Assembly: GCA_046757025.1 (NCBI GenBank)
Contig: JBHHXN010000003.1
Coordinates: 1-64,000, forward strand
From: a bacterium
GTDB taxonomy: Bacteria; Zhuqueibacterota; Zhuqueibacteria; Oceanimicrobiales; Oceanimicrobiaceae
DNA length: 64,000 nucleotides
Direction: 5' to 3'
Shown here: piece after piece, positions 14,201 through 24,682 of the stretch
Layout of the letters: each line of letters begins with the position of its first letter
Position numbering within the stretch: the first letter of the stretch is position 1
Notes under the pieces: generated by a model
What the model was told of the DNA's origin: nothing
The model's database searches: none
The model's input: the letters and a program-made list of their open reading frames with translations, nothing else
Made by a program: the position numbers and the translations under genes

Positions 14201-15099
14201 CAGATCAGGCAAGAGACATTTATGGGCGTGACTATTTTCAGACTTTTCGGTAAGATAGAAATTCGAACCACGGCCTCTTCCCAAACCGGCTCCCCGTCGA
14301 TGTTCACGTAGTCTGGAGCCTCCCGTTCCACAAACAACTCCGCCGCCCGGTAAAATTCAGCACTGGCATATTTCGGCATGTTCCCGGAAAACAGCTTGGG
14401 TACCGCCGATAAAATTTGAAACAGCGACAGTTTGTGAATAACACAGATGTCAAACAATCCGTCGTTGAGCTTGGCGTCCGGCGCGATTTTCGCGTTGTTG
14501 CCATATTGCTGCCCATTGGCCACGGCGATGGTAAACGGACTCAATAGCATGGAACGGCCATCAAAATCTATTTTCAAAAGGCTTGGTTTATAATTAAAAA
14601 ATTCTTTTGCGCTGAGATAAAAATAAGGCAGCGCTCCCCTATTTGGTGATTCATCAAATTTTTTTCCGACCAGCGCATCGAAACCAAAACCGGCGATGAG
14701 AAAAAAATAACGCTCATTGGCTTTACCCACATCCATGGCTGCGACCTTGCCGTTTGAAATCACCTCACAGGCTCGGATAACTTTTTGTGGAATTTGCAAG
14801 CTGCGCGCCAATCCGTTCCCCGAACCCAGCGGAATGATGCCCAGCACGGCCTGCGTGTTTACCAGACCGATGGCGACCTCATTGACAGTGCCGTCTCCGC
14901 CCGCTGCGACCACCAGATCAACATGCTCATTTACTGCCCGGCGAGCAAATTCGGTGGCGTCTCCCCTTTTGGCAGTATATTGAATAGTGAGATCAAATCC
15001 AACATCGGCAAAATATTGCGTCACTTGCTGCACCAAGGTTGCTTTGTTTTTATGGGAACCAGCGATGGGATTGACAATTAAAACGATCTTTTTGCGCAT
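14200..15099 (-). CDS. Diacylglycerol/lipid kinase family protein (YegS/BmrU-like)
   Basis: IVNPIAG, AAGGDGTVNEV, PLGSGNGLAR, GFDA and IDGE motifs. Confidence 0.92.
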   Translation of the reverse strand: MRKKIVLIVNPIAGSHKNKATLVQQVTQYFADVGFDLTIQYTAKRGDATEFARRAVNEHVDLVVAAGGDGTVNEVAIGLVNTQAVLGIIPLGSGNGLARSLQIPQKVIRACEVISNGKVAAMDVGKANERYFFLIAGFGFDALVGKKFDESPNRGALPYFYLSAKEFFNYKPSLLKIDFDGRSMLLSPFTIAVANGQQYGNNAKIAPDAKLNDGLFDICVIHKLSLFQILSAVPKLFSGNMPKYASAEFYRAAELFVEREAPDYVNIDGEPVWEEAVVRISILPKSLKIVTPINVSCLI

Positions 15100-15206
15100 A
15101 ACTATTTATTGGTCAAAAGTCCGAAACCGCGTATCTCTTTGAACGCGATAAAGATATTGATTATTTTGACTTTTGTCAATTTTATTTTATCGAAGAAAAG
15201 AGTATT

Positions 15207-15234
15207 TGGAAGGGATTCAACAAAATTTTTGTTA
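15207..15234 (+). promoter_or_regulatory. Degenerate candidate ECF promoter (GGAA-N19-GTT)
   Basis: TGGAAGG-N15-TTGTTA, with the same geometry as the GGGAATA-N15-TTGTTC sites at 21591 and 23359. Confidence 0.4.
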
Positions 15235-15240
15235 AGATAA

Positions 15241-15254
15241 TTAGTTGCAACTAA
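15241..15254. promoter_or_regulatory. Perfect 14-bp palindrome, candidate operator
   Basis: TTAGTTGCAACTAA is its own reverse complement and lies in a divergent intergenic region. Confidence 0.4.
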
Positions 15255-15369
15255 AACACCGCCGGGCCCGGGCAAGTTTCCTCGCTGGCGCAAAACACCC
15301 ACAACATAAATGAAAAGAAAGCTGAATCGCTTGAATCATTTATTAAATTGAATAATTCTATCTTAAAAC

Positions 15370-16239
15370 ATGATACATTTTCATAAATTAATTTTGCTGG
15401 TTTGCTGTCTTCTGCTGCAAACCACCCAGATTTTTGCCGGCGCATGGACGCAGAAAAAGCATCACTATTACGTAAAAATCAGCCTGCTGCGGTTTGAATC
15501 TACTTCTCAATATTTACTAAACGGTCAGCGCCAGAAGCTGGTTGACCGCGGGCAAGTGCTCGACCTGGCGGTAAATTATTACATGGAGTACGGCATTTTT
15601 GACGATCTCACTTTCATCGCCAGTCTGCCGTTTAAAAGGATCAATTTCTCCTGTGCCATCGAAGACTGCAACAAAACTTCCTCAGGAGTGGGCGACATTT
15701 ATTTTGGCCTGCGCTATCGTTTGTCGGAAAAATTATGGACGCTTTCCCTGCAGAGCGGAATCAAAATCGCCCCAAACTACGAGACCGATGAGAAGGAGTT
15801 AAACTCCGCTCCACCGCTGGGCGACGGTCAAAATGATTTTGAGCTGCGCTTGCAGGTGGGACGTTCGATTTTCAAGTATCGCGGCTATTTGAACCTGGAT
15901 GTAGGTTACCGGGCGCGCTCCCAGGAGCCCGTAGATGAAATTCCATTTTCATTTGAGTTGGGAGTGGACCTCACTCAGGACTATCTCCTAAGCGCGCAAA
16001 TTTACGGTGTGAAAAGTATCTCGGAAACGAAAAATCAGTCTGATTTTAGAATAGTAGATGGCCGGGTCGTGAATTTTGTCGGCACCGGCGCGGTGGAAGA
16101 TTTCATCAAAGCGCAGGTACAATTTATTTACCGAATCAACCGCCACCTGGATCTGTCGTTTTTGTTCGAACAAGTGCTCGACGGCCGCAACACTTCTCAC
16201 GCCAGCATTTTAGGCGGCGGCGTCGCTTTACACCGCTAA
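15370..16239 (+). CDS. Putative outer-membrane beta-barrel 'transporter' (SphA/MetA-pathway-like)
   Basis: Signal peptide then AGAWTQKK, SGVGDIYFGLRYRL, PLGDGQNDFELRLQVG. Paralog of the gene at 17808. Confidence 0.75.
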   Translation: MIHFHKLILLVCCLLLQTTQIFAGAWTQKKHHYYVKISLLRFESTSQYLLNGQRQKLVDRGQVLDLAVNYYMEYGIFDDLTFIASLPFKRINFSCAIEDCNKTSSGVGDIYFGLRYRLSEKLWTLSLQSGIKIAPNYETDEKELNSAPPLGDGQNDFELRLQVGRSIFKYRGYLNLDVGYRARSQEPVDEIPFSFELGVDLTQDYLLSAQIYGVKSISETKNQSDFRIVDGRVVNFVGTGAVEDFIKAQVQFIYRINRHLDLSFLFEQVLDGRNTSHASILGGGVALHR

Positions 16240-16413
16240 ATGCCACCAGGCAAATCGACTCCAGAAGTCTCTTTCAATTCAACATTCTGAATTCAACAAG
16301 GTGCCGGCCCCCTTCCCTGCAGGCGGCATAGTAATTGGAACAGAAATAAAATAAGCTCCATGCTGGCGCATTTTGTTCGAAATTTTGCAGATGATTTTCT
16401 ACTCCATCCGCCC

Positions 16414-17526
16414 CTATCGTCCATGAATTTCCGCACCCTGGTGAAAGACCCCCCAGGCAAACCAGTAAGCCACGTAGGACACCATGTGCTCAAGCTTCTC
16501 ACCTGCGAGCGGCCCGGCCGTGGCTTCACCCAGCACATTCCAGGTTGACTGGGTCTGTTCATCTTTAAAGGTGTAAGGAAATTCGACTACATTTGCGTCC
16601 AAAGTGAAGCTCAAAAGTTGACCGTTGACACTTCGCGAATACGCCGCGGTGAAATTATTCACGCCGTCGTTGATCACCAGAACGGTTTTATCATCGATTT
16701 GATCATTGACCAGTTCGATTCCCATTGAAGGATTTATGACGTAGGCCCGTGTGATGTAGGTATCTGATTCGGGATTGGAAATGACACCAAGCACACGTTG
16801 CTTCGGAGGCAAGCGGTCATCCAAAAAACTCACGGCGGATCTGAAAAGCGGCGGCGAATTCAAACTGCGGTAACCGGGATAGGCCGAGCCCGACTGACTG
16901 TAAGGCCGATCATAAGAAGTATTCGTGGACAAAACCAGGGTGTTCGGACACAATTTTTTCCAGGTTCCCCAGTTGGTTTCGAACGAAGGATAGATTTTTT
17001 GTTTGACGTTTCTTAGTGAACCGTTGTCGCATTGCAAGCGCATTTGCGGCCAATGGCTGTTCGTCTGCCGGTCAAACATGATCAGATTGTTATTATATAG
17101 CAAGCCTGAAACACCAAACGTGAGTTTTTGGTTGGCGTTCTCTCCATCAAAAACGATGGCCGACCCAGTGAGTGGACAAAAGCTCACGGTCTTTTTCTTG
17201 CCCGCTGGATATTCTTCGTTGACAATTTCATGCCAATCTAAAATCGCATGCGGATAGGCATAAGCCTGACCGTCCACCACCACGCCCACCACGAGCTCGC
17301 TGTCTTGAAGGTAGGTCGCCTGGCTTTGGGATATTTTTTCCGGATCAAACAGCGATGGAATGCCATCTTTGGGCACTCCGCCGGAAATGATCTCATTAAC
17401 TGGAATATTCCAATTTGCCTGAGAGCTGTCTACTCCGGATGACAAACTGTCGTTCTGCAACGAACAGGAATACCACCCCCATGACATCGAAACACAAAAA
17501 GCAATGAGCAATCTATATTTATTCAT
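16414..17526 (-). CDS. DUF3179 domain lipoprotein
   Basis: Lipobox-like YSC, GGVPKDGIPSL, AYPHAILDWHEIVN, FCPLTGS, FGVSGLLYNNNLIMFDRQTNSHW and YWFAW. Confidence 0.9.
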   Translation of the reverse strand: MNKYRLLIAFCVSMSWGWYSCSLQNDSLSSGVDSSQANWNIPVNEIISGGVPKDGIPSLFDPEKISQSQATYLQDSELVVGVVVDGQAYAYPHAILDWHEIVNEEYPAGKKKTVSFCPLTGSAIVFDGENANQKLTFGVSGLLYNNNLIMFDRQTNSHWPQMRLQCDNGSLRNVKQKIYPSFETNWGTWKKLCPNTLVLSTNTSYDRPYSQSGSAYPGYRSLNSPPLFRSAVSFLDDRLPPKQRVLGVISNPESDTYITRAYVINPSMGIELVNDQIDDKTVLVINDGVNNFTAAYSRSVNGQLLSFTLDANVVEFPYTFKDEQTQSTWNVLGEATAGPLAGEKLEHMVSYVAYWFAWGVFHQGAEIHGR

Positions 17527-17570
17527 TTCAATGTATCCTGTTTAGGTTATAAATTTATTTTGAAAAAGTC

Positions 17571-17753
17571 GTAACTATTCAGCCTAAACCGTCATGCTGA
17601 GCGCAAAATTCCAAATGCTGAACATCTCACCGAAAGCATCTGCGCGAAGCACCTTCGAACCGGCGAAGAGATTCTTCGCATATCCGCACCAGTGGAGCTG
17701 AGCAAAGAATCCAGAGTTTGTGCTCAGAATGACAACCCTGTCTGAATAGTTAC
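17571..17753. mobile_element. MITE-like palindromic element with 12-bp terminal inverted repeats (family A)
   Basis: Perfect TIR GTAACTATTCAG...CTGAATAGTTAC with inner IR gtcatgctgagcgcaaa/tttgtgctcagaatgac. The first 60 bp recur at 63941-64000. Confidence 0.75.
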
Positions 17754-17807
17754 AAAATATCTTATGATGAATTAACTTCCGCGACATGTATTTTGTGTCA
17801 TGCATCT

Positions 17808-18728
17808 CTATTTAAAAAACGTATATGACACCCCCAGGCTAAACACTTCGCCAGCGGGGTAATTTTTTCCCGAAAGACTAAATTGCACACCCGCTTCCAG
17901 CGCCAGAGCCGGCGTGACCGACCAAAACACGGCGGGTTCCAGATACAAGACCTCGCGCTCAGAGTCCGGCAGGGTAAAATCTTCATCCTTAAATTTCGCG
18001 CTGTACAATCCTGAGACCGCCAGCTTGAGCAGCAAATTATTCATCACGTTGAAGCCGCCTTCGCCTCTGAAAATAATTTCGTTGCCGGGGATTCGCGTGC
18101 TGGTTTGCGGATCTGGCTCAAAGCGGATGCGATAACCCACATCAAAATTCAGGTAGCCGGTAACGGGATACAGCGACCTTCCGAATTGCCCCACCAGTTC
18201 CAGATCCCACTGGCCATCACCGATGGGAATGACTTCCGCCTCTTTGTTAAAAAAGCCGGTCGGAGCTTTGGCTTCAACCTTGAAGGTGGCAACGAAGGGC
18301 AGGGTTATAAATCGGTAACGCGCGCCAAATCGAATATCGCCGATGTCATTGGTGCCGTCGCGTTCGGGATTGCTTAAATCCGTAAACTGAATATCATAAA
18401 ATGGCACTTGAACTTTTAATTCCAAGCGATCGGTCAGGCCGTATCCGATATCTAAAAATACCGCTGTAAATTTGCTTTCCCCATCAAATGGAAACGGCAC
18501 TTTCTGACCGCTTTTATCACATTTATGGGAAAAGGGGCAACCGGTGTTGCGGGAATAAAATTGCTCGTGTGTCTTTTGAAAAAACACAGAAGACTTCACC
18601 CATAGCTGGTTACGTTTAAGAGTCCAGGCGCCCGCATAAACCTCGACTGTCATAAAAAAAGCAGCAACCAAAATAATCGATGTACTGCTTTTTCGAAATC
18701 TGGAGAAATGGAGTAAATATTTATTCAT
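17808..18728 (-). CDS. Putative outer-membrane beta-barrel 'transporter' (paralog of 15370)
   Basis: AGAWTLKR, IGDIRFGARYRF, PIGDGQWDLEL and terminal LGVSYTFFK. An alternative in-frame start exists at 18743. Confidence 0.75.
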   Translation of the reverse strand: MNKYLLHFSRFRKSSTSIILVAAFFMTVEVYAGAWTLKRNQLWVKSSVFFQKTHEQFYSRNTGCPFSHKCDKSGQKVPFPFDGESKFTAVFLDIGYGLTDRLELKVQVPFYDIQFTDLSNPERDGTNDIGDIRFGARYRFITLPFVATFKVEAKAPTGFFNKEAEVIPIGDGQWDLELVGQFGRSLYPVTGYLNFDVGYRIRFEPDPQTSTRIPGNEIIFRGEGGFNVMNNLLLKLAVSGLYSAKFKDEDFTLPDSEREVLYLEPAVFWSVTPALALEAGVQFSLSGKNYPAGEVFSLGVSYTFFK

Positions 18729-19500
18729 TGGGTAATATTTCAAATTTTACTTCAGCGGATTTGTCCGCTGAAACGGTCACGGTTTTCTCTAGGGTGCCCA
18801 GGGCTTCATGCCAGGCGCGCACGGTGTATGTCCCTGCTGGCACACCGGCAATGGTGAATTGACCATTTTCATCGGTCACCGCATGATACGGATGGTCCAC
18901 CACCGCCACATAGGCGCTCATGTGTTCATGCACATCGCATTTAAAATAGTAAATGCCCGGTTTTTCCAGGGTCTGTGTGATCTTTTTGAGAAACTTAGGC
19001 TGAGCTTTGTTGAATATCGTGTTCTTCGGATCTAAGCCATTTCGATAAGCGTGAACGTTGTGGAGCAAAGCGTCGTTATTTAAAATCTGCAGCTCGGTAT
19101 TCACGGGCACAATTTGCACGTGCGGAATGTACTGACACCCTTGTTGATTTAACGTGGCAACGGATTTTTCTTTGGCATTTTTGCGGCCTTTCACATTCTC
19201 CACCGTGATCACGACATTTTTCAATCCGTGATTTTCTTCGGAAACGATGAACACTTCAGAATATTGAAAGGCTCGGCAAACCTGCTGGTCTTTGGTAATG
19301 GTAATCTTTTCTCTTTCCGGATACGCCTCAGGAAATCGTACCACACCGGTGATGCCGCCGCCATTCACTACGGTCGGGCCGGTTTCATTCAAGGCGGAAC
19401 CGTTTTCCCGCGACGCGCTGATTTCGAACAGCGCAAAACAAGCCAGTACGATCAGCAAACTGCGGAGAATGGTTTTATTAGAAAATCTATCAGAAATCAC
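18721..19500 (-). CDS. Periplasmic cupredoxin (type-1 copper motif) with carboxypeptidase-regulatory-like domain
   Basis: LHNVH...YYFKCDVHEHM (H..C-x2-H-x2-M) and VTDENGQFTIAGVPAGTYTVRAWHE. AAGGAG RBS before GTG 19500. Confidence 0.82.
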   Translation of the reverse strand: MISDRFSNKTILRSLLIVLACFALFEISASRENGSALNETGPTVVNGGGITGVVRFPEAYPEREKITITKDQQVCRAFQYSEVFIVSEENHGLKNVVITVENVKGRKNAKEKSVATLNQQGCQYIPHVQIVPVNTELQILNNDALLHNVHAYRNGLDPKNTIFNKAQPKFLKKITQTLEKPGIYYFKCDVHEHMSAYVAVVDHPYHAVTDENGQFTIAGVPAGTYTVRAWHEALGTLEKTVTVSADKSAEVKFEILPNE

Positions 19501-19516
19501 TTGGTTCTCCTTTTGA

Positions 19517-20530
19517 TCAATTAAATTTCCACTTACTTTTCTTAGGGGCAAACGACTTCAAATAAGCATATAAATCGCTAAATTCCGAATCATCCATATA
19601 CTTGCCATAATCCGGGCAGTAAAATGGCGGCGCGGGTTTCGACGGGTCCAACGATTTGGCAATTACTTTTCGAGAGAGACGCTCTAACAACGCTTCCTGA
19701 GTAAATTTCGCCGCCGCCTTTTTCAACGCCGGCATCATTTCGTTGGGAGCCATGTTGGGGTTTTGGATGCCTCCGCTGCCGTACTCTCCATGGCACGACC
19801 AGCAAGCAAATCGTTTAAACACCAGCTCGCCGCGCTCTTTGTCGGTATTTCCTAAAAAGAAATTAGTACGAAATTCCCACTCCTGAGAATCTTCGTTGCG
19901 CTGCCCCTTTTGGGTTTGCAAAAACGCCGCCAGCGCCTCGATGCCTTTTTCAGGAATATGAAAATTGGGCATGAAAGTGCCGGGCTTGAAAGCGGATGGA
20001 TTAGTAAGCCAGGTTTGTTCCCAACTTTCCGTTTTGCGTGCTCCAATCCAGGTTAAATCCGGCCCCACAAACCGGCCGGTGGACCCCACCCGGTGACAGG
20101 CCAGGCAATCGTAATCTTCAAACAGCTTTTCACCCTTTTCAGCCAATGAACCGTTTTGGGCCAGGATGTTGTCGGTATTCAAAGTTTTTTTCATATTAAT
20201 CAGGTAATTGACCGTCATTTCCAACTGCCGTGGGTTGAAATCAAATTTCGGCATTTTGGTGCCGGGTTTGACCTCCTGCGGATCGGCAATCCAGCGCCGA
20301 ATCCAGTCTTCTGACCGGCGATTCGCCACTTGATTCAAAATCGGGCCCACGGTGCCGCCGCGTTCGGCGATGGTATGACAGCTTGTACACTGAAACGTCT
20401 GGACGATTTCACTCTGTAAAAAAGCTTCTTGCGGTGTGCCTTTCCAGGAAGTTCCATCCGAGCCGTTTTGGGCAAATATATTGCCCCAGATTATAAAAAA
20501 TAGTAACAAATACAGGTATTTTTTTTGCAT
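19517..20530 (-). CDS. Triheme c-type cytochrome
   Basis: Signal peptide and CTSCH, CLACH, CWSCH motifs. PGTKMP and PGTFMP supply axial Met for hemes 1 and 2. Confidence 0.92.
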   Translation of the reverse strand: MQKKYLYLLLFFIIWGNIFAQNGSDGTSWKGTPQEAFLQSEIVQTFQCTSCHTIAERGGTVGPILNQVANRRSEDWIRRWIADPQEVKPGTKMPKFDFNPRQLEMTVNYLINMKKTLNTDNILAQNGSLAEKGEKLFEDYDCLACHRVGSTGRFVGPDLTWIGARKTESWEQTWLTNPSAFKPGTFMPNFHIPEKGIEALAAFLQTQKGQRNEDSQEWEFRTNFFLGNTDKERGELVFKRFACWSCHGEYGSGGIQNPNMAPNEMMPALKKAAAKFTQEALLERLSRKVIAKSLDPSKPAPPFYCPDYGKYMDDSEFSDLYAYLKSFAPKKSKWKFN

Positions 20531-20579
20531 GTTCCGTTAATTAATTTGTAGTTTTATTCGGGTAGTATTCAGCTTCATT

Positions 20580-20620
20580 CAAAGCGCGATGATGAATTTT
20601 CGTCAGAGCACCGCGCTTTG
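20580..20620. other. Intergenic stem-loop between the cytochrome genes
   Basis: caaagcgcg...cgcgctttg 9-bp inverted repeat with no U-tract on the minus strand. Confidence 0.45.
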
Positions 20621-20645
20621 TTAATTTGATTATTTTAAAAAAGAA

Positions 20646-21266
20646 TTATTTTCCGCCCATCATTTTTTTCATCATTTCTGGCACGGCGCCGACCGAAACT
20701 TTGTCGTCGTTGCTCAAGGACGTGATATAAGCAGATAAGGCTTTGAATTCTTTGCTTTTGGGATCCAAAGGCTGCGCAGCCATGAACATCATGATGCAAT
20801 TGTTCGCCATGTCACCGACGGTGATGACTGCATCGTTGGGAACTTTAAATTTGGGAAATGTGGCGGCTGCACCAACCAATGTCGGAATGGGAAGTTTGTA
20901 AGGTTTTCCAGTCAATTCGCTGGCCATGGGGGTTTCAGCTTCGCCGCCCGTAGTACCGCCGCCTGGATGACAGCTCGCACAAGCCTGACCGTTCGTGCCC
21001 AATGCTTTCTTTGAATTGAATAGCTCTTCGCCATATTTGATGGATTCATCCTGGGTTTTCTTTAAATGTGACGGCAGCTTCATCATGGCGTCTTTGCTGG
21101 ACATGAATCGATCCATATTCTTCATGGCCATGTTTTTCATCATCATTTTATGCTCTTGCGTAAGCGGTTTTGGGGTATGTTTTTTTTCTCCAGCACCTAA
21201 ATTGGCTATCATTGCCATAAATGCCAAAACCAGTACGAAAGTGATAAATAGTCTAAAGGACTTCAT
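20646..21266 (-). CDS. Monoheme c-type cytochrome resembling a single SoxA/TsdA domain, Met-rich
   Basis: AAGGAGG RBS, signal peptide, GEELF..CASCH..AATFPKF..TVGDMANNC..PLDPKSKEFKALSAYITSLS. Confidence 0.85.
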   Translation of the reverse strand: MKSFRLFITFVLVLAFMAMIANLGAGEKKHTPKPLTQEHKMMMKNMAMKNMDRFMSSKDAMMKLPSHLKKTQDESIKYGEELFNSKKALGTNGQACASCHPGGGTTGGEAETPMASELTGKPYKLPIPTLVGAAATFPKFKVPNDAVITVGDMANNCIMMFMAAQPLDPKSKEFKALSAYITSLSNDDKVSVGAVPEMMKKMMGGK

Positions 21267-21590
21267 AAGTTCCTCCTTGTTAATAAAATGATAGAATTCC
21301 ACAAAACAGGATATTCAACCTTCGGGTTGCTGTAGGTTGAAGCCCGAACACCCTTTGGTAATTTCATTTCGCAGAAGCCTAATAAATGAGTGATTCATTA
21401 ATTTAATGGGTAATGCACAATATAGTTTGAAAAGGCTCATTCACCTCCTTTCACCTTTCATAAAAGCTGAACGAAATTGGATAAAATAATTTTTAATTGA
21501 AGGCAATATTTGATTTTCAATCGTCTCACAAAATCCACAGTTAAACTGCGCTGTGTTGAGTATCGAATTTTTTAACCTCATCAAAATGTA

Positions 21591-21618
21591 GAACAAGCTA
21601 GATCTTGTAAATATTCCC
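21591..21618 (-). promoter_or_regulatory. Candidate ECF (SigR/SigH-type) promoter of the cytochrome operon
   Basis: Minus strand GGGAATA-tttacaagatctagc-TTGTTC, equal to GGAAT-N18-GTT. Boxes and spacing are identical to the site upstream of the sigma gene. Confidence 0.7.
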
Positions 21619-21724
21619 CGGCAAATAATCTAAAATTAAAAGGCGTTTCACTTTTTGCTGCAAGGAACATGGCATCTCAATGCGGAACGTGAACAGTGCA
21701 CGAGAACAATGTTCACCATTTAAC

Positions 21725-21773
21725 AAAAAAAAACCACTTTGCTCTTTCCCCAATTTCTTGAGAACAAAGTGGT
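21725..21773 (-). terminator. Intrinsic terminator after the anti-sigma gene
   Basis: accactttg/caaagtggt stem followed by a U-run on the minus strand. Confidence 0.7.
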
Positions 21774-21798
21774 ATCGAGATTCAAATGGCAGTAAAGA

Positions 21799-22461
21799 TT
21801 AAAGCAGCTTATAATTTTTTACATAAATATATCTGGCATCTTGAAATAAGATCCCCGAAATAACCGCTTTGCGTTTCAGTAAAGACTGGTCGTGCAACAG
21901 CTCTTTATTGGAATCGCTATCCAGAAAAGTCCAAACACGCTTATCAATGGTTTTGAAACCCATGCGATGAGTTTCCGGATTGTGCTGCAACTTTTCCACG
22001 TTATGCGACAGCAGCTCACAATCCATGCAGATTATTTCCCCTTGCAATTCCTCTTCGGTTTGGCTGGCAACGGACTCAACAGATTTGGAAGAGATCTTTT
22101 CCAATGAAGTGCTGACGACCTGAACAGACGGCAGGAACATGACCAGAATGATCACGGCTAGCGCCAACGACGCAGACACTGGCTGATAGACAAACAATGA
22201 ATGCAAAAGTTGCCAGAAGCCCGGCCGCTCGCCATTGCGAATTAGCTGACGCCGGATGCGTCTTTTCAGGGCAAAAGGCGCCTTGACAATCGGCAATCTC
22301 TCCTGAACTAAATCCTTCACACGCAATTCTTCACGGTAGGCGGCATGACACCGACTGCACTCATCCAAATGAATCTGCACGGCTTCGGTTTCCGATGCCG
22401 GCAGCTCGCTATCGATGAAGCCCGTGATGCGTGATGAGAAATAATAACAATCTTTTTTCAT
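21799..22461 (-). CDS. zf-HC2 membrane anti-sigma factor with C-terminal CxxC/His-rich extracytoplasmic domain
   Basis: GGAGG RBS, FIDSEL..HLDECSRC, a TM helix, then GEIICMDC..H..H..H. Confidence 0.85.
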   Translation of the reverse strand: MKKDCYYFSSRITGFIDSELPASETEAVQIHLDECSRCHAAYREELRVKDLVQERLPIVKAPFALKRRIRRQLIRNGERPGFWQLLHSLFVYQPVSASLALAVIILVMFLPSVQVVSTSLEKISSKSVESVASQTEEELQGEIICMDCELLSHNVEKLQHNPETHRMGFKTIDKRVWTFLDSDSNKELLHDQSLLKRKAVISGILFQDARYIYVKNYKLL

Positions 22462-22658
22462 TTTAAAAACCTCCATAAAACTTTTTCAACGGTAACGGAC
22501 ACCCGATGAAAATTCAAACTTCTTCATATTTAAACAAATATTAATGTTTGGATATTTCTATTTAATCGATAAATTTCAAATGTGATTATTGTGTTTACTT
22601 TCCTTTTTTCATGCATTCATCTAACTAACCACCTGTGCTGTTTGCACCTCGCTTCAGA

Positions 22659-23276
22659 TCAATTTACATCGTCGTTGGAATTTTTAATAAAGCCCCCCCG
22701 AATGGCATAATCTTTCAAATAGCTTTGTAACTGCTTGCGGCCGCGTGACAACCTCGACATGACCGTACCGACGGGGCAGTCGATAATCTTCGCAATTTCT
22801 TTGTAGGAAAAGGCTTCGATGTCGGCTAAGAGCACCACCATTCTAAACTCTTCTGACAACATTTCCAGAGCGGATTTTATTTCATCGCCGAACAACAAAT
22901 AGTAATTTGAATCATCAAACTTATCCAGCATGCGGTCGATCGGCTCTGTGCGGCTTTCGTTATCGCTGACGGTGCCGTTGACCTTTTCAAACTCCACATA
23001 GTGTGGCTGGCTGGTTTTTTTTCGATACTGGTTGATAAAAGTGTTGGTCAAAATTTTAAAGATCCAGGCTTTAAAATTGGTGCCTTTTTTAAATTTATGA
23101 AAAAATCGAAACGCCCGCACATATACATCCTGCACCAAGTCTTCGGCATCCAATTCATTTTTTGTCATCCTCAAAGCCGTGTTGTAAAGAGAATTCATGT
23201 GCTCAAAAGCCAGCTCTTGAAATTCTTTTCTTTTCAGCAGTATCAGCTTTTGATTTTCTTTGGGATGTTCAAGCAT
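22659..23276 (-). CDS. ECF sigma factor (SigR/SigH-like)
   Basis: LYNTALRMTKNELDAEDLVQD..F..GTNFKAWIFKILTNTFINQYRK and LADIEAFSYKEIA..PVGTVMSRLSRGR. Start placed at ATG 23276. Confidence 0.93.
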   Translation of the reverse strand: MLEHPKENQKLILLKRKEFQELAFEHMNSLYNTALRMTKNELDAEDLVQDVYVRAFRFFHKFKKGTNFKAWIFKILTNTFINQYRKKTSQPHYVEFEKVNGTVSDNESRTEPIDRMLDKFDDSNYYLLFGDEIKSALEMLSEEFRMVVLLADIEAFSYKEIAKIIDCPVGTVMSRLSRGRKQLQSYLKDYAIRGGFIKNSNDDVN

Positions 23277-23358
23277 GTATTCTTTAAGAATTAGTCTAAA
23301 TAGATACGGTAATAAACAACCACCCTGATAAGTCAAAATAATCAATTTTCAAATAGGG

Positions 23359-23386
23359 GAACAAACGCTATTCGGATTTTATTCCC
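23359..23386 (-). promoter_or_regulatory. Candidate autoregulatory ECF promoter
   Basis: Minus strand GGGAATA-aaatccgaatagcgt-TTGTTC (GGAAT-N18-GTT), about 80 nt upstream of the sigma ATG. Confidence 0.7.
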
Positions 23387-23390
23387 ACAT

Positions 23391-23957
23391 TTACAGATCC
23401 GATTCATCTTTCCAGTGAACGATGCGCCACTTTCCGTCTTCTGCACTTTGCTCAAAAGTAAATATCGCGGTACCGGTAATGATGAAATTTAAATCGGCGC
23501 TAAAAAGGCTGAGATTGAATCGGATGAATCTTCGTTGCGGTCGGGTGGTATCGGCAAACACGGTATTCAGCCACACCAACTCGATGACATCGAAATTACG
23601 AAACAGACGACCGGTCGTCTTCAGGTCTTCATCTCTGGCAAAAGTGATGATTTCACCGGAAGGCCCGGAGTTTGAGTCAAAATATTCAAACACAAATGCT
23701 TCATCTAACAGATCACTGTAAAGCAGGGAATCTTTGAAAGTGTAGGCAATTTTAAAATTTTGCAAAACTTCTTCTGGGGAACGTTGCTCGGTAATGACAT
23801 TGGAGAGATCGGGATTTTTATCCAGGGCGGGAGCAAAAGGATTAAAACAGTGGATATTGAGGATGAGGTAGGAAAAAATGGTAATAAAAAAAGCGTGTTC
23901 TTTGAGTAAAATTTTCGTAGGTGTGGCAGGCTGGTCAGGCGGCGCTTCATATTTCAT
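23391..23957 (-). CDS. Hypothetical lipoprotein, NTF2/SnoaL-like
   Basis: Hydrophobic stretch then C-FNPFAP, SPEEVLQNF..Y..LL..F.F and terminal WRIVHWKD. The start is uncertain. Confidence 0.65.
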   Translation of the reverse strand: MKYEAPPDQPATPTKILLKEHAFFITIFSYLILNIHCFNPFAPALDKNPDLSNVITEQRSPEEVLQNFKIAYTFKDSLLYSDLLDEAFVFEYFDSNSGPSGEIITFARDEDLKTTGRLFRNFDVIELVWLNTVFADTTRPQRRFIRFNLSLFSADLNFIITGTAIFTFEQSAEDGKWRIVHWKDESDL

Positions 23958-23982
23958 TTCAACCGGCAAAATTATGCATTCT

Positions 23983-24020
23983 AAAATAAAAATAGCGGCA
24001 CTCAAGAAAGCACCGCTATC
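23983..24020 (-). terminator. Intrinsic terminator after tonB
   Basis: atagcgg/ccgctat stem with a U-rich tail on the minus strand. Confidence 0.55.
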
Positions 24021-24043
24021 AGATTTTATCAAAAACTTGTGGA

Positions 24044-24682
24044 TTATTTCAATTTAAAAATCACGGGAATGGCGACCCAGACTCTCACCGGTTTATCGCG
24101 CTGCAAAGCGGGTTTCCATTTCACTTTTTTAATGGCAGAAACCGCGGCTTCGTCGCAGCCGCTGTGGCCGAGCGATTTCATGATACGGGTTTTCACCACT
24201 TCGCCTTTTGCAGACACTAACACCTGAACAATCACTCGTCCTTCGATGCCGGCTTTGCGGGCAATTTCAGGATATTTCAGCGCGCGTTGAATTGCTCCAA
24301 AGCCACCAATTGGGCTGGGGGCTTCATCAAATGGCACGAAAATATTCATGTCGTCATCCTCTTCCGGCGGCGCGGGCGGCGGCGGGATGTCGGTCAAATC
24401 CAATTCCGTGGTCTCAATGGTCAAGTCCTCTGGCACATCTTCGCTTTCCGTGGGAATTGGAATGGACGGTTTTGGCGGCGGCGGCGGCCTTTTAATTTGT
24501 TCCGTGGGAGGAATGTCTGCCACCTCGATTTGAATGTCTGGCGTTTCGGTCTCAGTCGCTTCTAAACTAATCGCTCTGAGCATTTGAAAAACCACCAGCA
24601 TGACAAATAATGATATGACCATGCTGAGTTCAAACACCTTGCGGTATTTGAGTTTTAAATTGGCGTCTGGATTTTTCTTCAT
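24044..24682 (-). CDS. tonB: Energy transducer TonB
   Basis: N-terminal TM, Pro-rich linker, YPEIARKAGIEGRV..W.PA..PV.F.L. Confidence 0.93.
   Translation of the reverse strand: MKKNPDANLKLKYRKVFELSMVISLFVMLVVFQMLRAISLEATETETPDIQIEVADIPPTEQIKRPPPPPKPSIPIPTESEDVPEDLTIETTELDLTDIPPPPAPPEEDDDMNIFVPFDEAPSPIGGFGAIQRALKYPEIARKAGIEGRVIVQVLVSAKGEVVKTRIMKSLGHSGCDEAAVSAIKKVKWKPALQRDKPVRVWVAIPVIFKLK

Follow-up and report, generated by a model that had tools for sequence, protein, structure and literature searches.

Positions 15207-23386 of a 64,000-nucleotide stretch of bacterial DNA (contig JBHHXN010000003.1; in the following called the window) hold eight genes arranged around recurring promoters. They include a trio of conserved order, encoding a SoxA/TsdA-like monoheme cytochrome c, a triheme cytochrome c and a cupredoxin-type copper protein, and the promoter sites are conserved among relatives. 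Judged from the sequence, this module is one arm of a wider regulon of the SigR/SigH type, presumably controlled by an extracytoplasmic function (ECF) sigma factor and a membrane anti-sigma factor. We favor, with about even confidence, the reading that this arm encodes a thiol/sulfur redox system of the cell envelope, made up of a regulatory switch, a SoxAX/TsdA-like core, and accessory outer-membrane barrels together with a DUF3179 lipoprotein. The module belongs to known kinds, namely SoxAX/TsdA-type cytochromes and SigR-type switches, and is not a categorically new system.

A preliminary description of this DNA had listed eight genes, a terminator and a repeated promoter motif. All of these were recovered at the same coordinates from the list of open reading frames, by Pfam and NCBIfam searches and by a motif scan, whereas signal peptides and the lipobox were judged by eye only. 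The features are as follows, in the direction of transcription of the operon.

23360-23385, minus strand: promoter GGAATA-N16-TGTT before the sigma factor gene
22659-23273, minus strand: sigma factor of the ECF group, closest to the SigH/SigR type (start codon ATG at 23273, open frame reaching 23345; Sigma70_r2 63.7 bits, r4_2 58.9 bits)
21799-22476, minus strand: membrane anti-sigma factor of 225 residues (zf-HC2 29.4 bits)
21724-21773, minus strand: intrinsic terminator 3' of the anti-sigma gene, hairpin plus U9 (-17.5 kcal/mol, z -2.5)
21592-21617, minus strand: cytochrome operon promoter GGAATA-N16-TGTT, with the ATG ~320 nt downstream
20646-21266, minus strand: SoxA/TsdA-like monoheme cytochrome c (PF21342 56.4 bits)
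19517-20530, minus strand: triheme cytochrome c with three CxxCH motifs
18721-19551, minus strand: copper protein of 276 residues with cupredoxin and CarboxypepD_reg domains
17808-18743, minus strand: outer-membrane barrel 1 (PF13557 42.1 bits)
17587-17612, minus strand: third exact copy of GGAAT-N18-GTT, with the DUF3179 gene 61 nt downstream
16414-17526, minus strand: DUF3179 lipoprotein (PF11376 260.9 bits)
15370-16239, plus strand: outer-membrane barrel 2, paralogous to barrel 1; its gene converges with that for DUF3179
15208-15233, plus strand: variant promoter GGAAG-N18-GTT before barrel 2

The terminator was missed by a simple terminator scan; 3 of 200 shuffled sequences fold as well.

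The sigma factor is an ECF member with regions 2 and 4 (TIGR02937, 100 bits, cut-off 42.9). Its best NCBIfam match is TIGR02947 SigH_actino with 195 bits, below the cut-off of 251.55. The promoter feature of SigH/SigR-type factors, GGAAT followed by GTT, is present as well; passages of PMC5005934 give the SigR consensus as GGAAT / GTTG. Seven copies of GGAAT-N18-GTT occur in the window against 3.65 expected, a number that 6 of 100 shuffles reach. Three of the seven, all on the minus strand, occupy intergenic gaps: one ahead of the sigma gene, one ahead of the cytochrome operon and one ahead of the DUF3179 gene. The first two had been noted in the preliminary description; the third is an addition to its list. 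It had also reported a degenerate copy before barrel 2. A copy is present there, but GGAAG-N17/18-TGTT recurs at the corresponding position in each of the four orthologous loci for which sequence was available (L010, L011, L012 and L014; L and C with a number are our labels for loci and contigs), and we therefore regard it as a conserved promoter variant instead.

Conservation among relatives carries the argument. Thirteen KSB1/Calditrichaceae loci (434 kb of strand-sequence) contain 26 motif copies, with a background of 0.06 per kb per strand. A copy lies within ~320 bp upstream of the SoxA-like gene in ten of the 13 loci. The sigma gene is preceded by one in six of the seven loci where it adjoins the core and in all five further sigma loci (11 of 12 together). 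Three more copies precede DUF3179 or a TLC/HEAT transporter gene heading the operon; L012 is a locus with the motif before DUF3179. Five of the ten sites before the SoxA-like gene have no sigma gene nearby; in all five of these genomes an anti-sigma orthologue is encoded elsewhere, each time in the order TonB, orf213, promoter, sigma factor, anti-sigma factor. Positions outside the search pattern are conserved too, with an A after GGAAT at 21 of 25 sites and a T before GTT at 22 of 25. This conservation argues that the window sites are not there by chance. It supports the proposal of the preliminary description that the ECF sigma/anti-sigma pair may drive neighboring exported redox genes through a shared promoter, and we infer that the sigma factor reads the motif-bearing promoters and, through the site before its own gene, regulates itself. 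Outside KSB1/Calditrichaceae, a loosened motif precedes the core operon in 5 of 22 loci, about the chance level by our estimate from the background.

The strict form GGAATA-N16-TGTT occurs 17 times in the whole genome, about as often as base composition predicts (our estimate). Eight of the 17 sites lie in intergenic regions upstream of genes, compared with 0.95 expected (P 1.4e-6), and seven permuted control patterns gave 0-2. Two of the eight are the window sites before the sigma gene and the cytochrome operon. The others precede a pyridine nucleotide-disulfide oxidoreductase gene with a radical SAM gene, genes for pyruvate dehydrogenase E1 and then AhpC, a DUF1579 gene, a TetR gene accompanied by a sigma factor paralogue, a thioredoxin-containing operon, and a thiamine pyrophosphate enzyme gene with an aldehyde dehydrogenase gene. 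Just outside the criteria are sites at a DUF3179 paralogue (C166) and at a CysM/JAB/ThiF-rhodanese-ThiS cluster (C36). We take this gene set to resemble the disulfide-stress regulon of SigR/SigH. With the loose motif, 37 upstream-intergenic sites were found versus 14 expected. Ten annotated ones with a T before GTT include genes for GTP cyclohydrolase, phosphotransferase system EIIA, an aquaporin, PHO4 and an ATP-binding cassette transporter; a sulfite-oxidase-type molybdoenzyme and another ECF pair are also among the annotated loose sites, most of which are indistinguishable from chance. The molybdoenzyme gene (L065 84-1430, minus strand, contig C19) has GGAAT-N18-TGTT 210 bp upstream, and the same contig holds another DUF3179 paralogue ~29 kb away.

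The genome encodes three paralogous sigma factors of the SigH/SigR-like type, so the promoters are not assignable to one sigma factor. The anti-sigma factor carries in its N-terminal part C10, H36, C40 and C43, which presumably correspond to the zinc/thiol-site positions of RsrA, and matches the RsrA model TIGR03988 with 48.8 bits (cut-off 62.5). A single hydrophobic span follows at about residues 98-118 (by eye), and then a C-terminal domain of ~100 residues, predicted to be periplasmic, with C150-x-x-C153 and His158/165/170. The CxxC and the His residues of this domain are kept in 12 of 12 orthologues, compared with 7 of 12 for the cytoplasmic HxxxCxxC. Assignment to the RsrA-type zinc-associated anti-sigma (ZAS) class was rejected, given the score under the cut-off and a membrane span and periplasmic domain that, as read from the sequence, distinguish the protein from soluble RsrA. 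The C-terminal part shows likeness to predicted models including DUF5818; a feature-based search of the ESM Atlas with it yielded no usable match.

The nearest known systems are SigR-RsrA of Streptomyces and SigH-RshA of mycobacteria. Shared with these are the nearest sigma model, the RsrA-model match with its four Cys and His residues, the GGAAT-N18-GTT promoter and thioredoxin-type genes in the predicted regulon. In contrast, neither the sigma nor the anti-sigma factor here reaches its equivalog cut-off. The anti-sigma factor sits in the membrane and has an additional periplasmic CxxC domain, more strongly conserved than the zinc/thiol site, and exported cytochromes and outer-membrane proteins are among the predicted targets.

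An anti-sigma orthologue was found in 19 of 21 genomes of the bacterium's family, four of them without a SoxA-like match. The regulator therefore appears to be the older resident and the cytochrome operon its cargo. The SoxA-like gene is present in 14 of 151 genomes of a phylum sample, the window's genome included, namely in 11 of 17 other family genomes and two more of the order; the remaining genomes searched gave no match. Relatives differ in the cargo carried in the slot that separates the anti-sigma gene from the lipid kinase gene. The slot is empty in L077 and L078 and, save for a short barrel 1 remnant, in L079; it contains barrel 1 and DUF3179 in L074, both barrels in L075 and the full set in the window. 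Two arrangements of the regulatory genes differ from that of the window. The anti-sigma gene directly follows the promoter motif in L077 (genome G005), with no sigma match between, and sigma and anti-sigma factors form one open frame of 439-450 residues in L078 (genome G004). The 213-residue open frame orf213 (23391-24032, minus strand) lies in the window between TonB and the sigma promoter, and is kept at that position in every related locus having the sigma gene; it has no Pfam or NCBIfam match.

A scan in which each species was represented by one genome yielded 41 loci. In 32 of them the genes stand in the order SoxA-like, triheme, cupredoxin; these loci come from KSB1, Calditrichaceae, Acidobacteriota, Gemmatimonadota, Krumholzibacteriia, Marinimicrobia, Polyangiaceae and others. 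Two loci are interrupted by contig ends, four Proteobacterial ones have the SoxA-like gene with a shorter cytochrome and no cupredoxin, two have no cupredoxin match, and one has the SoxA-like match only. Tandem pairs of SoxA-like genes occur in six loci. Sigma and anti-sigma genes adjoin the trio in seven of the 41 loci, DUF3179 lies within the locus in six and the barrels in five, all of them in KSB1/Calditrichaceae relatives. The linkage across genomes on which the preliminary description had staked its proposal thus exists for the trio, but for the sigma factor, barrels and DUF3179 it is limited to these relatives. Its description of the module as self-contained did not hold: the trio occurs independently across phyla without these other genes, the slot cargo varies, and the promoter type also precedes thiol-redox genes elsewhere in the genome. 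Because the motif also stands before thioredoxin-type genes, the module is better seen as one arm of a regulon.

The first protein of the trio matches the SoxA/TsdA domain PF21342 with 56.4 bits (cut-off 27), and reaches 55.2 bits with the SoxA equivalog TIGR04484 (cut-off 110). All 21 sequences share C96, C99, H100 and C157. Searched against solved structures, the family profile has its best relatives in SoxA (1H31, 2C1D, 3OA8) and, weakly, in TsdA (4WQ7, E 1.2e-4). C157 aligns with the Cys of the 'NAC' motif of SoxA 1H31 and, in a second, weak stretch (7.2 bits), with that of 'RGC'; both cysteines are, we assume, heme ligands in SoxA. All 21 members have arms rich in Met: the 25-27 residues that precede the heme domain contain 6-9 Met, and the tail contains 1-8. 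The family is small, with 19 cluster representatives at E 1e-30 and 101 at 1e-10 among 1.84 billion, and several members are named 'thiosulfate dehydrogenase' by the JGI pipeline.

In the triheme protein all three CxxCH motifs as well as M93 and M187 are invariant (32 of 32 sequences). Heme 3 lacks a conserved Met, with M260 in 16 of 32 sequences, while C305 is present in 31 of 32, which makes a second Cys-ligated heme plausible. The Cys-ligated hemes proposed in the preliminary description are therefore plausible in both cytochromes. The SoxX model TIGR04485 gives 84.1 bits (cut-off 61), summed over two stretches of the protein. A complex prediction of the SoxA-like and triheme proteins with four hemes scored 0.07, with the mark at 0.32, and speaks neither for nor against binding.

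Compared with SoxAX in its monoheme-SoxA forms, the shared features are the PF21342 heme domain, the CxxCH followed by a conserved Cys aligned with that of 'NAC', and an adjoining second cytochrome gene, whose product passes the SoxX cut-off only when two stretches are summed. The differences are the score under the SoxA cut-off, the Met-rich arms, a partner cytochrome with three hemes instead of one, a cupredoxin gene in the operon, and a genome in which SoxB, SoxY and SoxZ were not found. TsdA/TsdB shares the His/Cys-type heme domain; as in that system, no carrier protein would be needed and a multiheme partner would serve as electron acceptor. Passages of PMC6879331 describe TsdA as a diheme enzyme and its reaction as bidirectional. 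Identity with TsdA thiosulfate dehydrogenase was rejected, as the SoxA-like protein has one CxxCH only. A canonical Sox multienzyme system was rejected as well, since neither the SoxYZ carrier nor the SoxB hydrolase (none over the cut-off) has a match in the 94.8% complete genome; the absence of soxB/Y/Z that had been remarked on for the window thus extends to the genome at this completeness.

The copper protein consists of an N-terminal anchor, a cupredoxin domain and a C-terminal CarboxypepD_reg beta-sandwich. H164, C205, H208 and M211 are invariant in 30 homologues, as are C92, C139 and, in the CarboxypepD_reg domain, W247-H248-E249. The predicted model (pLDDT 88.5) is matched by Foldseek to amicyanin, plastocyanin, pseudoazurin and the copper domain of NirK. 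Fold and His/Cys/His/Met set together point to a type-1 cupredoxin, in agreement with the earlier assignment. The resemblance to amicyanin, plastocyanin and pseudoazurin lies in the fold (Foldseek E 1e-6 to 1e-5, TM-score by target ~0.7) and, for amicyanin, in the C-x2-H-x2-M ligand loop. Unlike these, the protein has the N-terminal anchor, an extra small domain with the invariant C92 and C139, and the C-terminal domain with the invariant W-H-E; the pseudoazurin model gives 17.5 bits (cut-off 109.85). Triheme and cupredoxin parts form one open frame of 567 residues in L016 (10597-12297, plus strand), a natural fusion of core genes. A cupredoxin/CarboxypepD_reg paralogue on contig C38 (L045 1258-6725, minus strand) adjoins genes for a split cytochrome b and a multiheme cytochrome c of 877 residues, a gene set that could form an unusual bc-type complex. 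Another copper-protein paralogue, on contig C103 (L052), is ~8 kb from a gene for the C-terminal part of cytochrome b and a 689-residue multiheme cytochrome c. The position of these paralogues fits a link to the respiratory chain.

Barrel 1 matches the Phenol_MetA_deg family PF13557 with 42.1 bits (cut-off 22), and we take this family to correspond to COG4313. Its gene overlaps the end of the cupredoxin gene and is therefore probably co-transcribed with it; in L074, where it directly follows the anti-sigma gene, it has a promoter motif of its own. Barrel 2 has no Pfam match and is 30% identical to barrel 1 (E 5e-26). Passages of PMC4493636 describe COG4313 proteins as outer-membrane channels, among them Pput2725. 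The match of barrel 1 to PF13557 agrees with this group, while the lack of a meaningful match to any solved chain in a phmmer search with barrel 1 and a barrel 2 under Pfam detection set the pair apart.

The DUF3179 protein matches PF11376 with 260.9 bits (cut-off 27). Its Cys117, part of CPLTG in the window protein and of CPL in the family, is invariant; at the aligned position, two paralogues encoded in this genome (C28 and C335) and the one in L005 have an in-frame TGA. The only tRNA-Sec gene of the genome lies ~2.2 kb from the DUF3179 gene on C28, and SelB scores over its cut-off. The alignments show Cys and predicted selenocysteine (Sec) to be equivalent at position 117. Passages of PMC9312934 place DUF3179 among selenoprotein families, with a UxxC/T motif.

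The predicted DUF3179 model (pLDDT 91.5) has no Foldseek match in the PDB at E 0.001 or better. A VIA alignment of residues 252-360 with Rieske proteins gave a middling score (Z 8.2, rmsd 2.9, 88 aligned). Most of the top 30 structural rows are Rieske proteins, and the N-terminal half weakly matches one (Z 4.5). The model thus suggests, at middling scores, two Rieske-like beta domains. Identity as a Rieske [2Fe-2S] protein was ruled out: the CxH...CxxH ligands are absent and residues 252-360 contain no Cys (by eye), and the invariant CPL lies in the N-terminal domain without a second Cys/His pair.

The motif also lies upstream of the DUF3179 paralogues of the same genome on C166 and C28. The C28 gene (L054 3235-4359, minus strand) is divergent from another ECF sigma gene, with GGAAT-N18-GTT upstream. 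The Sec-form gene on C335 (L050 15-800, plus strand) is accompanied by a convergent barrel gene with the motif before it. On C166 (L051 1852-3004, minus strand), the DUF3179 paralogue, which has a type IX secretion tail, is preceded by two tandem genes for a '23S rRNA intervening sequence protein', each behind an identical stretch of 27 bases.

From these parts, the thiol/sulfur reading can be put as a mechanism. The membrane anti-sigma factor would hold the sigma factor until a redox or thiol-reactive change, at the cytoplasmic RsrA-like zinc/thiol site or at the periplasmic CxxC/His domain, releases it. The freed sigma factor would then read GGAAT(A)-N18-(T)GTT before its own gene, the cytochrome operon and DUF3179, and the GGAAG variant before barrel 2. 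The core would act as a SoxAX/TsdA-like complex whose SoxA-like subunit oxidizes, at its His/Cys heme, a thiol or a reduced sulfur compound such as the model substrate thiosulfate. The second cytochrome would relay the electrons through its three hemes to the type-1 copper protein anchored in the membrane, from which they would enter the respiratory chain. The barrels and the DUF3179 protein would likely serve the same chemistry, with the two COG4313-like barrels passing the substrate across the outer membrane and the lipoprotein supplying a redox-active Cys.

Several observations weigh against this proposal. The sulfur assignment rests on the homology of a single heme domain that stays under the SoxA cut-off, and no SoxB, SoxY or SoxZ accompanies it in the genome. 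The SoxX score sums two generic class-I domains, with no SoxX among the phmmer matches to solved structures. Met-rich arms and a periplasmic CxxC/His domain suit a metal as well as sulfur. On the regulatory side, the cytoplasmic zinc/thiol site is missing from 5 of 12 anti-sigma orthologues, three paralogous sigma factors leave the pairing of sigma factor and promoter unassigned, and the motif count within the window alone is not significant. The neighbors of the core in other phyla are inconsistent as well, and comprise an AioA-like enzyme with two peroxidases, a Cu-ATPase, MerT/CopZ, NIR_SIR and AhpC/Trx; a survey of 122 open reading frames in 20 loci found no consistent partner outside the trio.

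The likeliest alternative, though we consider it rather unlikely, is a reductive or defensive function. Respiratory electrons would flow in through the cupredoxin and the hemes, the His/Cys heme would reduce an oxidized periplasmic species (tetrathionate, polysulfide, a disulfide or peroxide), and the Cys/Sec of DUF3179 would act as a peroxidase- or reductase-like partner. The promoter type common to thioredoxin, AhpC-linked and disulfide-oxidoreductase genes is consistent with it, as are the bidirectionality of TsdA in the passages of PMC6879331 and the Sec-for-Cys replacement in the DUF3179 paralogues. Such a replacement is typical of reductive and peroxidatic catalysts. However, type-1 copper proteins are usually high-potential acceptors, no consistent antioxidant partner lies near the core in other phyla, and the sequence does not fix the direction.

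Unlikely in our view is the handling of Cu(I) or another soft metal, in which the Met-rich arms would capture Cu(I) and the hemes and cupredoxin would oxidize it, as a heme counterpart of cuprous oxidases, while the CxxC/His domain of the anti-sigma factor senses the metal. The conservation of the arms in 21 of 21 sequences and of the CxxC and His residues in 12 of 12 orthologues is in line with this, as are a Cu-ATPase near the core in L038, MerT-HMA/CopZ in L032, and the hydrothermal vent metagenome label of the sequencing runs in which the stretch occurs (all from one study, which may be where the DNA came from). Yet just 2 of the 20 loci surveyed have metal genes close by, the scanned loci showed no CopC, CusF or multicopper oxidase family, and the heme domain appears to be of the sulfur-enzyme type with a Cys ligand.

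We regard as quite unlikely an undescribed, carrier-based periplasmic chalcogen pathway, in which the SoxAX-like cytochrome would oxidatively couple a sulfur (or selenium) substrate, admitted through the COG4313-like channels, to the Cys/Sec of a Rieske-fold DUF3179 lipoprotein acting in place of SoxYZ, the dedicated blue-copper protein would carry off the electrons, and the anti-sigma factor would read the redox state on both sides of the inner membrane. Mere adjacency, with a sigma factor that regulates only itself or unrelated targets and other motif copies due to chance, draws on the non-significant window count and the variable, in L077, L078 and L079 (short barrel 1 remnant) empty slot, but is very improbable and already disfavored given motif copies at orthologous positions before the SoxA-like gene (10/13), the sigma gene (11/12) and barrel 2 (4/4), the conservation of motif positions that were not selected for, and the retention of the motif where the operon sits away from the sigma gene.

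A literature search, with supplements outside its scope, found no description of this operon, and the preliminary description had not recognized it as a described pathway either. The KSB1 survey PMC9012183, again apart from its supplements, has no occurrence of tsdA, soxA or cupredoxin. Four public DNA sequencing runs contain the stretch, and no RNA run is listed for it.

New in this system are an ECF regulon with conserved promoters, a variable cargo slot, a two-compartment anti-sigma factor and the Rieske-like fold predicted for DUF3179. The SoxA-like family is rare and unstudied, yet spread across many uncultured phyla. If sulfur-cycle surveys count members labeled 'thiosulfate dehydrogenase' as such, that label lacks an assay basis. 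A SigR-type switch with a periplasmic sensor domain would give a pointer to the conditions under which the family is expressed. DUF3179, a large family with no assigned function, gains a candidate catalytic Cys/Sec, a possible Rieske-like fold and a regulatory context. With four promoters, one sigma/anti-sigma pair and three redox proteins as defined parts, the module is a testable lead to an undescribed sulfur or metal redox pathway in an uncultured KSB1/Calditrichota-type bacterium.

Some further arrangements around the core and its leader were observed. The core operon in L022 (4107-9761, minus strand) lies beside genes for an arsenite-oxidase-like molybdoenzyme (Rieske_3 and Molybdopterin) and two di-heme peroxidases. 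A TLC-transporter/HEAT-repeat protein of ~920 residues and a small cyclic nucleotide-binding (cNMP) protein adjoin the core in three loci from two phyla (L009 3639-6884, L008 1509-4786 and L034 13325-16514), with the ECF promoter motif before the gene in L008 and L009. Rfam gave no match over 15000-24100 at E up to 1, and no known riboswitch in the ~320-nt leader of the cytochrome operon. This long leader contains, just 5' of the SoxA-like start codon and included in that search, an inverted repeat, TTCAACCT ... AGGTTGAA (21310-21360, minus strand).

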